Assembly: GCA_951406725.2 (NCBI GenBank)
Contig: OX597823.1
Location: 52,762,001 to 52,826,000 of the forward strand
Direction of reading: 5' to 3'
Origin: Octopus vulgaris
Taxonomy: Eukaryota
DNA length: 64,000 bases
Shown: positions 56,866 to 60,337 of the stretch, in pieces
Layout: each line of letters opens with the position of its first letter
Numbering within the stretch: the stretch's first letter is position 1
Notes under the pieces: model-generated
What the model was told of the DNA's origin: nothing
What the model saw: only the letters and a program-made list of their open reading frames with translations
Databases searched by the model: none
Program-made: the position numbers and the translations under genes

Positions 56866-57982
56866 ATTATTATTACTTTCATTATCCATGTCACGACTCA
56901 TACTTTTATAAGAGTTGCGATAAGGATCTATACTTTTACAAGTAATTTATTTTGAGGGACAAGTATTATTAAATCTATAATTTTTATACTTCTTTAATTT
57001 AGATCGATTATTAGCTGTTATAATAATTACTAAATTAGACATAGTAGAATTAGAAAGTTTAACAGTAGACTTATTGAATATTTGATAGTACTTATGTTGA
57101 GGTGCAAAATTGTGGGCAATTTTCATTTTGACATATCTTGCAAGTGGAACGTTTTACCGCGTAATATTCCGTTTTCTGTTTCATCCATTCAGTGATAGGT
57201 TATTATGATGAATGATGGAAGAGTTATTCCTTACCTTAGTAAATGAATAAATGAATGTTTATTATAGAATATGGAGACTGGGAAATATTGCTTGCTACTA
57301 TCAGTATTTGAAATATGACAGTGATTTTTAAAACTTTAAAATCTTGAATTACTAGAAGCTAGCAAAGAATCATATTTCTTCAGTAGTAACAATGGTTTTA
57401 AAGTTTTCTATAGTATGTGGTACTCTGATTGTGATTTACAGAAATATAGTTCTTACTTATAGTGGGACTGATAGGTCTTGACAAGGAGAGTTTAGTATAA
57501 TTTTTATATTTAGATGGTGAAAGATTATATTTATCTTTGCTATTTGACAAAATAAAACAAAAAATATAACTACCCCACTTTCATTAGACAGCTTGTGACC
57601 ATTTACATTTATAATATGCTTTTTTAATTTTGGCACGGGGCCAATATTTTAACGGGAGGGATTTGATTACATCAACCTCAGTGCTCAACTGGTATTATTT
57701 TATTGACCCTGAAAGAATGAAATGCAAAGACAACAGAATTTGAAATCAGAAAGTAAAGAAAGACTAATGCTGTTAAACATTTTGTCTGACATACTGACGA
57801 TTTACATTATTTATATTTGACGGATATTTGTCTTCACCTTGTTTGTTGTTAACACAACGTTCCAGCTGATATATCTTCCAGTCTTCAAGTGTCTTGGGAA
57901 AATTTCGAACATGGGTTCTCATTCCTAAGGTATTTTTCAATGTTATTATTATTATTGTTATTATTATTATTATTATTTATTA

Positions 57983-58362
57983 CTAGCAGTATCACCCGGC
58001 GTTGCTCGGGTTTGTAAGGGAAATAACTATATAAGCATTTTTAGAGATGTAAAGTATAATAGCCATCTCAATATGGCTAACCACAAGGGGGGGGGTTACT
58101 GTAGCTTTTTACGTACTGAGATTTAATAATAAATTTTTAGAGAGTTACTTCCCTTATATATGCATTAAAAATGAGAAAAATTGATGGTAAATTTTTTTAA
58201 ATCGTAGACTAAACGTAGACGCGCGCTAATACCCAGAAGGGCTCGATATGAATCACGACTATAAGATACCCGGTTTTTGTTAAGCTGCACCGCAAAATGT
58301 GGGTGTAGTTAGGAATCTAAATCGTAGGAGACAGCACACAACCTCTCTTTTATATATAAAGA
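57983..58362 (-). mobile_element. Non-autonomous Helitron (380 bp)
   Basis: Minus: A|TCTTTATATATAAAAGAG...CCCGAGCAACGCCGGG hairpin-tgatactg-CTAG|T; A/T insertion site, no TSD. Confidence 0.9.
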
Positions 58363-58975
58363 TTATTATTATTATTATTATTATTATTATTATTATTATT
58401 ATTATTATTATATTTATTATTATTGTTATTATTATTATTTTTATTATTATTATCATTATAATTATTATATTTATTATTATTATTATTATTATTATTATTA
58501 TTATTATTATTATTATTATTATTATATTTATTATTATTATTATTATTATTATTATTATTATATTTTATTATTATTATTATTATTATTATTATTATTATTA
58601 TCATTATGATCATTATCATTATTATTATTATTATTATCATTATGATCATTATCATTATTATTATTATTATCATTATTATCATTATCATTATTATTATTAT
58701 CATTATCATTATTATTATTATTATCATCATCATCATCATCATTATTATCATTATTATTATTATTATCATCATCATCATCATTATTATACATCATCATCAT
58801 CATCATTATTATCATTATCATTATTATTATCATTATTATTATTATTATCATTATTATTATTATCATTATTATTATTATTATTATTATTATTATTATTATT
58901 ATTATCATTATTATTATCATTATCACTATTATTATCATTATCATTATTATTATTAATATTATTATTATTATTATT
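58363..58975. repeat. (ATT)n/(ATC)n microsatellite, ~610 bp
   Basis: Directly visible. Confidence 0.97.
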
Positions 58976-59090
58976 CAGGTCACTGCATGAATATTATTAT
59001 TCAGGTCACTGCATGAATAATAATAACAACAATAATAATAACATCGAAAAATACCTTAGGAATGAGAACCCAGGTTCAAAATTTCCCCAA

Positions 59091-59136
59091 GACACCTGAT
59101 GAAGGCTGGAGGGTATATCAGGCGAAACGTTGTGTT
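59091..59136 (+). ncRNA. Minimal type-I hammerhead ribozyme
   Basis: GACAC-CTGATGA-a-ggctg-gagggtatat-caggc-GAAA-CG-TT-GTGTT; loopless palindromic stem III (AACGTT), GUU triplet. Confidence 0.75.
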
Positions 59137-60337
59137 AATAACAAACAAGGTGAGGACAAATATCCGTCAAATGTAAATAATATAAATAATGTACATAATT
59201 CCTCATCTCTTAAATATAGAACTGTAAGCTGACGATTGTGAGCTTGCCTGCTTACTTAGAACTTTCATATTAATTACAATAATATTTAATACAGAATCTT
59301 ATTGCTGTCACTTTAAAGTTTTATCACGATTTACTTCAATTTTTTTTCACTCTTGTAGGATGGTAGACTCCATGTCAACCAAAGTACGTGGAAAGATATG
59401 TGTAAAGTGTGTTCATATACTTAGTATTCATGTGTCTGTTAGCATATGTGTAATTAATTAATGTTAGGATTGTGTAATCAACTAATTAATTTTACCTAAT
59501 CAGAAAACAGGATTTGGAAGCTAGCATTTTCTGCATGATAGCTGTATATCACAAAATGAAAGCAATATCATAAGGAGGATGAATTTTTATTAAACAATCG
59601 AAAGCAAGGCATTATGACAACCAAAATTGTAAAAACTTCTGAAGTTTTGATAAGTTTTAATGAATAAAGTCATGTGAAACAGTTAGACAAACATGTAAAT
59701 AATTTTAATAGGGGCGGGGTCCTCAACAACGTTTTTTCTGCAAAAAATTGCACAAATCTGTCCTGACCAAGAGGCCTATCTGTCAGGGAAGGCATGGTCT
59801 GACATGGAATAAACAAAAATTTATTTAAGATATTCTATTTCGAAAATTACCCAGCAACCATGGGCTATTCAGCTAATATTCATATATATATATATATGTG
59901 TGTGTGTGTGTGTGTGTGTGTGTGTGTGTGTATTTAAGTGTGTGTCTTTGTTGTCTGTGTTTGTCCCCTCCCCCTCCATCACTTGACAATTGATGTTGGT
60001 GTTTTTACATTCCTGAAACTTAGCAGTTTGACAAAAGAGACCTACAGAATAAGTACTAGGCTTACAAAGAATAAGTCCTGGGATAATTTCTTTGACTAAA
60101 AACCCTTTAAGGTAATGCTCCAGCATGGCTGCAGTCAAATGACTGAAACAAATAAAAGAATATATATATATATTTGAAAAAAATTAATAGAAATGGTTTT
60201 TCTCATAATTTTTCCACATTAATAATTAGATATTTATAAGTTATGAAGGTATTCAAAAAAGGTGACTCGGATAGGAGTTTCTTGGTTAAAAGTGGCTTTG
60301 AAACTGATATTATTATCTAGTTTCAAGTATTTTTTCT

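Follow-up and report, generated by a model that had tools for sequence, protein, structure and literature searches.

An insert of 1,426 nt that splits an old SINE of Octopus vulgaris is likely a non-autonomous insertion of the Penelope-like element (PLE) type, whose RNA template likely held a short (AAT)n run that likely expanded afterward and was likely entered by a Helitron last. The insert, bracketed by a single 9-nt target-site duplication (TSD), lies in a 64-kb window, by which we mean the whole stretch of DNA that was analyzed. The positions of its parts are given in Table 1.

Table 1 Parts of the nested insertion, with positions in the window.
Feature	Position	Strand	Remarks
Host SINE, body and 3' part	57612..57793 (left edge approximate)	-	Old copy, 70-82% identity to other copies of the window
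Left TSD	57794..57802	+	9 nt; its final three letters, ATT, also belong to the end of the left arm
Left (inverted) arm	57800..57942	-	pLTR-like body without the 41-nt tail
Decayed hammerhead, left arm	57851..57893	-	3 nt lost from the CUGAUGA box, GAAA>GGAA
Left (AAT)n, arm-proximal	57943..57982	-	One AAC interruption
Putative non-autonomous Helitron	57983..58362	-	TC start, 3' hairpin, CTAG end, A|T target, no TSD
Rest of left array	58363..58975	-	On the plus strand, (ATT)n grading into ATC variants, with repeated variant blocks
Head-to-head junction	58966..59019	.	26-nt tandem duplication with ~12 nt of unique sequence; folds back
Right (AAT)n	59016..59042	+	Short, two AAC interruptions
Right arm	59043..59187	+	pLTR-like body
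Minimal type-I hammerhead motif	59091..59136	+	Core bases present, stem II with one G-G mismatch; cleavage predicted after 59131
41-nt tail	59188..59228	+	Right arm only; translation common to relatives such as P0002 and P0004
Right TSD	59229..59237	+	Second occurrence of the 9-mer
Host SINE head, 5' tip	59238..59251	-	Colinear with other SINE copies

The original prediction, that a SINE of its family A had been split with ctgacgatt duplicated on both sides, was borne out. Within the 64 kb, this 9-mer is present at the two edges of the insert and nowhere else; with the local composition, all 9 of 9 letters would match at a given site with a probability of ~3e-6. The host SINE has 20 other matches in the window, and when the insert was removed in silico, the flanks became colinear with the SINE copies spanning the site, each of which holds it once. 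Position 3 of the TSD is a G in both copies versus an A in 12 of 12 aligned SINE copies (those of the 20 that align here at ~50% identity or better), indicating that the duplication arose in an already aged SINE copy. The nest of three mobile elements is real, and a true target-site duplication in an aged SINE is confirmed.

The target site falls within the head region of the SINE, which contains no microsatellite. Two independent insertions of opposite orientation into a pre-existing (ATT)n would leave the microsatellite between the arms, where it indeed sits. However, a single TSD brackets both arms, intact SINE copies have no microsatellite at the site, and the colinear empty site contradicts this scenario, which we regard as extremely improbable.

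As for the host SINE family itself, A- and B-box-like motifs were seen on its minus strand by eye only, and ARAGORN detected no tRNA in the host SINE. The family also forms tandem or near-tandem partial repeats at positions 62570-63100, 3095-3858, and 9205-9547 of the window, including a tandem of three copies with a 172-nt period at 62582-63100. The octopus element OR1 is a CORE-SINE (PMC4824008), a class marked by a CORE domain of ~60 bp, and 66% of the O. vulgaris genome is made of repeats (PMC13282606).

The insert carries two inverted arms with their 3' ends outward, which align between 57800-57968 (-) and 59016-59187 (+) with 88.95% identity over 172 columns. With the microsatellite set aside, 15 of 142 positions differ between them (JC 0.114), and 12 of these differences are transitions. 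Using the rough divergence scale of JC 0.065 for 18 My (PMC13282606), the insert would be about 16 My old if the arms began identical. The tail extends the right arm by 41 nt, flush with the TSD, and is absent from the left arm. No second copy of the arms was found elsewhere in the 64-kb window by BLAST, and no open reading frame for an RT or a GIY-YIG endonuclease was found in the insert. Both arms contain an open frame of 63-71 codons; the idea that it is a coding remnant found no support, as the frame has no Pfam match. If transcribed, the arms (57800-59187) are predicted to form a long RNA duplex (-224.6 kcal/mol), a possible substrate for RNA editing.

Head-to-head inverted pLTR-like arms, a tail at one end only, a 9-nt TSD, and a hammerhead (at the motif level) together form the anatomy of an EN+ PLE insertion. 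Inverted pLTRs with 8-10-bp TSDs and a 31-bp tail, mostly head to head and with palindromes at the junction, have been described (Arkhipova 2013, PMC3846280), as has the inverted 5'-truncated copy with a 30-40-bp tail at one end (Craig 2021, PMC8557442). Because the locus encodes neither an RT nor a GIY-YIG protein, its dependence on a PLE is read from this anatomy, and we file the insert as a putative non-autonomous or truncated element of the PLE type.

To catch spurious translations of other copies, the open frame of the arm was used as a probe against protein sequences. The full-library search returned 53 translated matches, of which 50 have no Pfam match; the best one, an Octopus bimaculoides entry (P0002), is 80% identical, tail included. 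The matches fall roughly into a subfamily like this insert (A) and a sister family (B) with one to three tandem units, a sorting by regular expression that is crude (A/B/other 22/25/6 in one run and A/B 23/28 in another). Two matches that are real proteins with EGF and InlB-type repeats (P0031 and P0039) were left out of the motif count, and P0036 was kept. In P0036, arm-derived sequence is joined to an EF-hand (PF09068) segment, a possible case of exonisation or a gene-model error.

In six of the 53 relatives, only one of which (P0004) is of this insert's subfamily, an antisense match directly precedes the sense match; the changeover point varies, and no microsatellite separates the two. As far as translations can tell, head-to-head inversion thus recurs and is not a fixed unit. 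In the sister hammerhead family, the tandem units (~44 codons, some following an inverted copy; P0003, P0006, P0009, P0012, P0016, P0020, P0029, P0032, and P0042) may be retrozyme-like or tandem pLTRs. Word-index protein searches found a longer version for 0 of 2 candidates and no candidate for the other frame across the junction, and the ESM Atlas queried with P0002 gave chance-level scores only (0.81-0.82). No DNA copies were found in a prokaryotic genome set (two exact-pattern scans) or in plasmids (blastn), sets that are not eukaryotic and are uninformative on the family.

TSDs of 9 bp are typical of Mutator-like elements, and the combination of a 9-nt TSD with long inverted arms could also suggest a pre-formed inverted unit, namely a Mutator- or foldback-like DNA element with long TIRs that moved whole, the explanation closest to the original prediction. 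However, TIRs of such elements would be flush, where one side here has 41 extra nt; a hammerhead lies inside the arm; and the relatives show tandem repeats of the arm unit and variable inversion points, the variable junctions already contradicting a pre-formed unit. We hold this origin to be very improbable. The claim that the inverted, microsatellite-containing unit had inserted as one piece is hence supported as to a single integration, since one TSD surrounds both arms, and not supported as to a unit formed beforehand, given the varying junctions in the relatives and the same outcome in published PLEs (PMC3846280, PMC8557442). The description as a hammerhead inverted-repeat element captured the structure and missed its likely PLE-type nature.

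The hammerhead motif of the right arm runs in the order stem I (5 bp), CUGAUGA (59096-59102), an extra A, a 5-bp stem II, GAAA, CG, UU, and stem I again, with a palindromic helix III. A descriptor fitted to this motif matched once in the window, in the right arm, versus 0.005 matches expected per mononucleotide shuffle. Rfam, used with gathering and E-value thresholds, gave no hammerhead match at the locus and only four chance-level matches in the region. At the core, the translated relatives read PDEG in 6 of 13 subfamily units, which fits CUGAUGA, and PEEG in 27 of 32 sister-family units, which fits CUGAAGA. The amino acid combinations read for stem-II covariation are W/Q in 7 of 13 A units and, among the 32 B units, W/R in 9, W/Q in 5, and R/R in 4, a covariation signal that is confounded by CpG decay.

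One G-G mismatch interrupts stem II of the right arm. The codon at this place specifies Ala here versus Pro in 8 of 13 subfamily units and Ala in none, so the change is probably private to this copy. It is predicted to favor a competing hairpin over the core, as the hammerhead dimer has a calculated energy of -12.5 kcal/mol versus -25.5 kcal/mol for an alternative fold in which the core is sequestered. In the left arm, the 3-nt loss is accompanied by a C>T change and by GAAA>GGAA. On these predictions, both ribozymes are probably inactive now. The left core, announced as deleted, is therefore better described as decayed, and the right one, announced as intact, has its core bases but, with the mismatch and the predicted misfold, not its integrity.

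Read in the orientation of the element, the two arms give way to (AAT)n at an identical point, and in each an AAC breaks the run after three to four units. The array measures 653 nt on the left (Helitron excluded) versus 27 nt on the right, in agreement with the claim that the interior is an expanded (ATT)n holding a 380-bp Helitron. Because the target lacked a microsatellite and the two arms share an interrupted (AAT)n, a short interrupted array would have come with the template, which supports the view that at this locus (AAT)n was carried in by the element. Later slippage is suggested by the duplicated variant blocks of the left array (repeated AT-ATT-T and ATGATC units) and by its ATC gradient, and this array probably expanded after insertion. 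The junction between the two copies folds back (-7.8 kcal/mol as DNA, z -6.4), mostly through ATT:AAT pairing, and its motif was not found elsewhere in the 64-kb window.

The proposal that such elements carry and seed (ATT)n rather than only target it can be retained for this locus, with its non-microsatellite target and shared interrupted (AAT)n; the six inverted relatives, which lack a junction microsatellite, indicate that (AAT)n is not part of every insertion.

The strong asymmetry of the arrays would also be compatible with a long array made at insertion, through reiterative, telomerase-like copying of an (AAU)n template by the PLE RT, PLE RTs being sister to telomerase RTs (PMC8557442). 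We find this improbable: the duplicated mutant blocks and the ATC gradient point to stepwise slippage after mutation, and the other long AAT arrays of the window adjoin no arm sequence. Within the 50 nt inspected on the flanks of six other trinucleotide arrays of the window, no arm-like sequence was seen.

A stronger competitor leaves the machinery the same and makes the seeding a one-off event: the (AAT)n would be the flank of one donor copy that resided in a microsatellite, carried along by read-through (5' transduction). PLEs favor AT-rich or microsatellite targets (PMC8557442, PMC11167929), read-through from trinucleotide flanks has been invoked for (AAT)n/(AAC)n inserts (Arkhipova 2013, PMC3846280), and no translated relative has a long poly-Ile run upstream of the body. 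On the other side, short Ile/Asn/Met-Thr/Ser runs that would fit a few AAT-type triplets directly upstream of the body are seen in five of the seven subfamily matches whose N-terminal extensions are informative (P0007, P0011, P0021, P0027, and P0043, with P0010 and P0044 ambiguous), a weak indication obtained by eye at the protein level. Weighing both, we consider the one-off event rather unlikely.

Within the reading of an element that brought its own (AAT)n, the middle layer might be a 5'-truncated member of an octopus SINE-like family composed of an RNA-gene-type head, (AAT)n, and a Penelope 3' end with a hammerhead, moved by Penelope machinery instead of that of a LINE and leaving one or two (AAT)n seeds per long insertion. 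We propose this tentatively, rating its chances a little below even. There are two cues: past the left array lie ~12 nt of unique sequence, and P0027 has, upstream of the body, a weak match to Ser-Asp-Ile-Ile-Thr, a motif that we take to end a tRNA-like head in octopus repeats.

Non-autonomous Helitrons have a 5' TC, a 3' hairpin plus CTRR, and an A|T target, and they make no TSD. By its ends, the innermost element conforms to these rules, as it starts with TC, finishes with a hairpin then CTAG, and occupies an A|T site without a TSD and without a break in the ATT register. It shares these features with the known non-autonomous Helitrons and is present as a single copy, no second one being found in the 64-kb window. 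Since it occurs in the array of one arm only, it is most simply the last arrival and probably entered the left array after everything else.

These observations can be arranged into a putative sequence of events. A Penelope-type RT/GIY-YIG protein supplied in trans would nick both strands of the SINE head 9 nt apart, one of the nicks at ATT, and both 3' ends would prime cDNA synthesis, an outer RT start giving the tailed right arm and an inner start the tailless left arm. Such a course resembles that of a Poseidon protein, which cuts both strands and extends each of them, favors ATT, and starts reverse transcription at two sites that bound the tail (Frangieh 2024, PMC11167929). Besides priming from both strands, a model of self-priming on an antisense template has been offered for inverted structures of this kind (Arkhipova 2013, PMC3846280). 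The symmetry of the two arms shows that each copy traverses the body and passes into an (AAT)n interrupted in the same way. The truncated ends of the two cDNAs would then be joined head to head at the fold-back junction; the inversion was probably made during integration. Slippage would later have lengthened the left array and left the right one short, and the Helitron, whose structure is directly visible, would finally have inserted at an A|T step within the longer array.

Neither the nest nor the inverted hammerhead unit is new in kind, a nest being routine for a genome that is about two thirds repeat, and the birth of microsatellites from the cargo of mobile elements is known in general. 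What gives the locus its interest is that an apparent PLE-type element carried (AAT)n rather than targeting it, the microsatellite being cargo at a non-microsatellite target, and that it may belong to a Penelope-driven SINE-like family. The literature searched, a scope outside which most subscription journals and Repbase/Dfam fall, yielded no PLE-driven SINE and no microsatellite-seeding PLE, and the available text of PMC13282606, PMC4824008, PMC8967140, and PMC10886601 contains no description of this family. The locus also offers a clean genomic case that agrees with priming on two strands from two RT start sites, a process demonstrated in vitro for a single PLE. If seeding were true family-wide, the PLE-microsatellite associations usually read as a target bias would partly reflect seeding, and if the SINE-like reading were true, it would explain part of the ATT microsatellite load of the genome.

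Elsewhere in the window, the region 3952-4446 contains a ~255-nt MITE (about 4090-4343) whose inverted ends, compared by eye, agree at ~30 of 34 nt; we take these ends to be mariner-like. Similar arrays of (AAT)n followed by (TAT)n, with AGA interruptions in common, lie on either side of it, giving the impression of a microsatellite duplicated around the MITE. A U6 snRNA match with several substitutions (13419-13528, +, 85.2 bits) could be a gene or a retrocopy. Open frames at 16594-16902 (+), 17504-17902 (-), and 37156-37530 (+) have no Pfam match at 1e-3 and, judged by eye, resemble fragments of a mariner-type transposase and of LINE 3' ends.

Among known systems, the EN+ Penelope/Poseidon insertions (Pen2a_Av, PMC3846280; PAc, PMC11167929) are the closest, being alike in their head-to-head arms, 9-nt TSD, fold-back junction, hammerhead in the repeat, ATT at the target, and one-sided tail (30-40 nt there and 41 nt here). 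The insert differs from them by its lack of an ORF and its microsatellite interior.

The hammerhead motif resembles the metazoan PLE min-HHRs, for which an extra base after position 9, the pair G10.1-C11.1, a palindromic helix III, and a helix I of 4-5 bp have been reported (Cervera and de la Pena 2014, PMC4209133), along with pairs on opposite strands 100-700 bp apart. The likeness extends to CUGANGA, the extra base before stem II, the G-C closing pair, GAAA, the short helix I, the opposite-strand arrangement, and the palindromic helix III that needs a dimer. Differences lie in the mismatched 5-bp stem II (versus 7-8 bp in the Schistosoma min-HHRs), in the U at the cleavage position, and in an activity that is predicted to be lost.

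Non-LTR retrozymes (bioRxiv 10.64898/2026.07.22.740005) are also short, non-coding, PLE-derived units with a type-I hammerhead, and the sister family found among the matches shows two to three tandem units. However, retrozymes are defined by two or more tandem units, each with a complete hammerhead, whereas the two units here stand head to head, with one core decayed and neither predicted to be active. Finally, the (AAT)n/(AAC)n-rich inserts of Adineta vaga Penelope elements (PMC3846280) likewise place AAT and AAC inside PLE copies, including upstream of an inverted pLTR, but these are long, coding, and Asn-rich, whereas the octopus insert would have received a short non-coding run that expanded on site.
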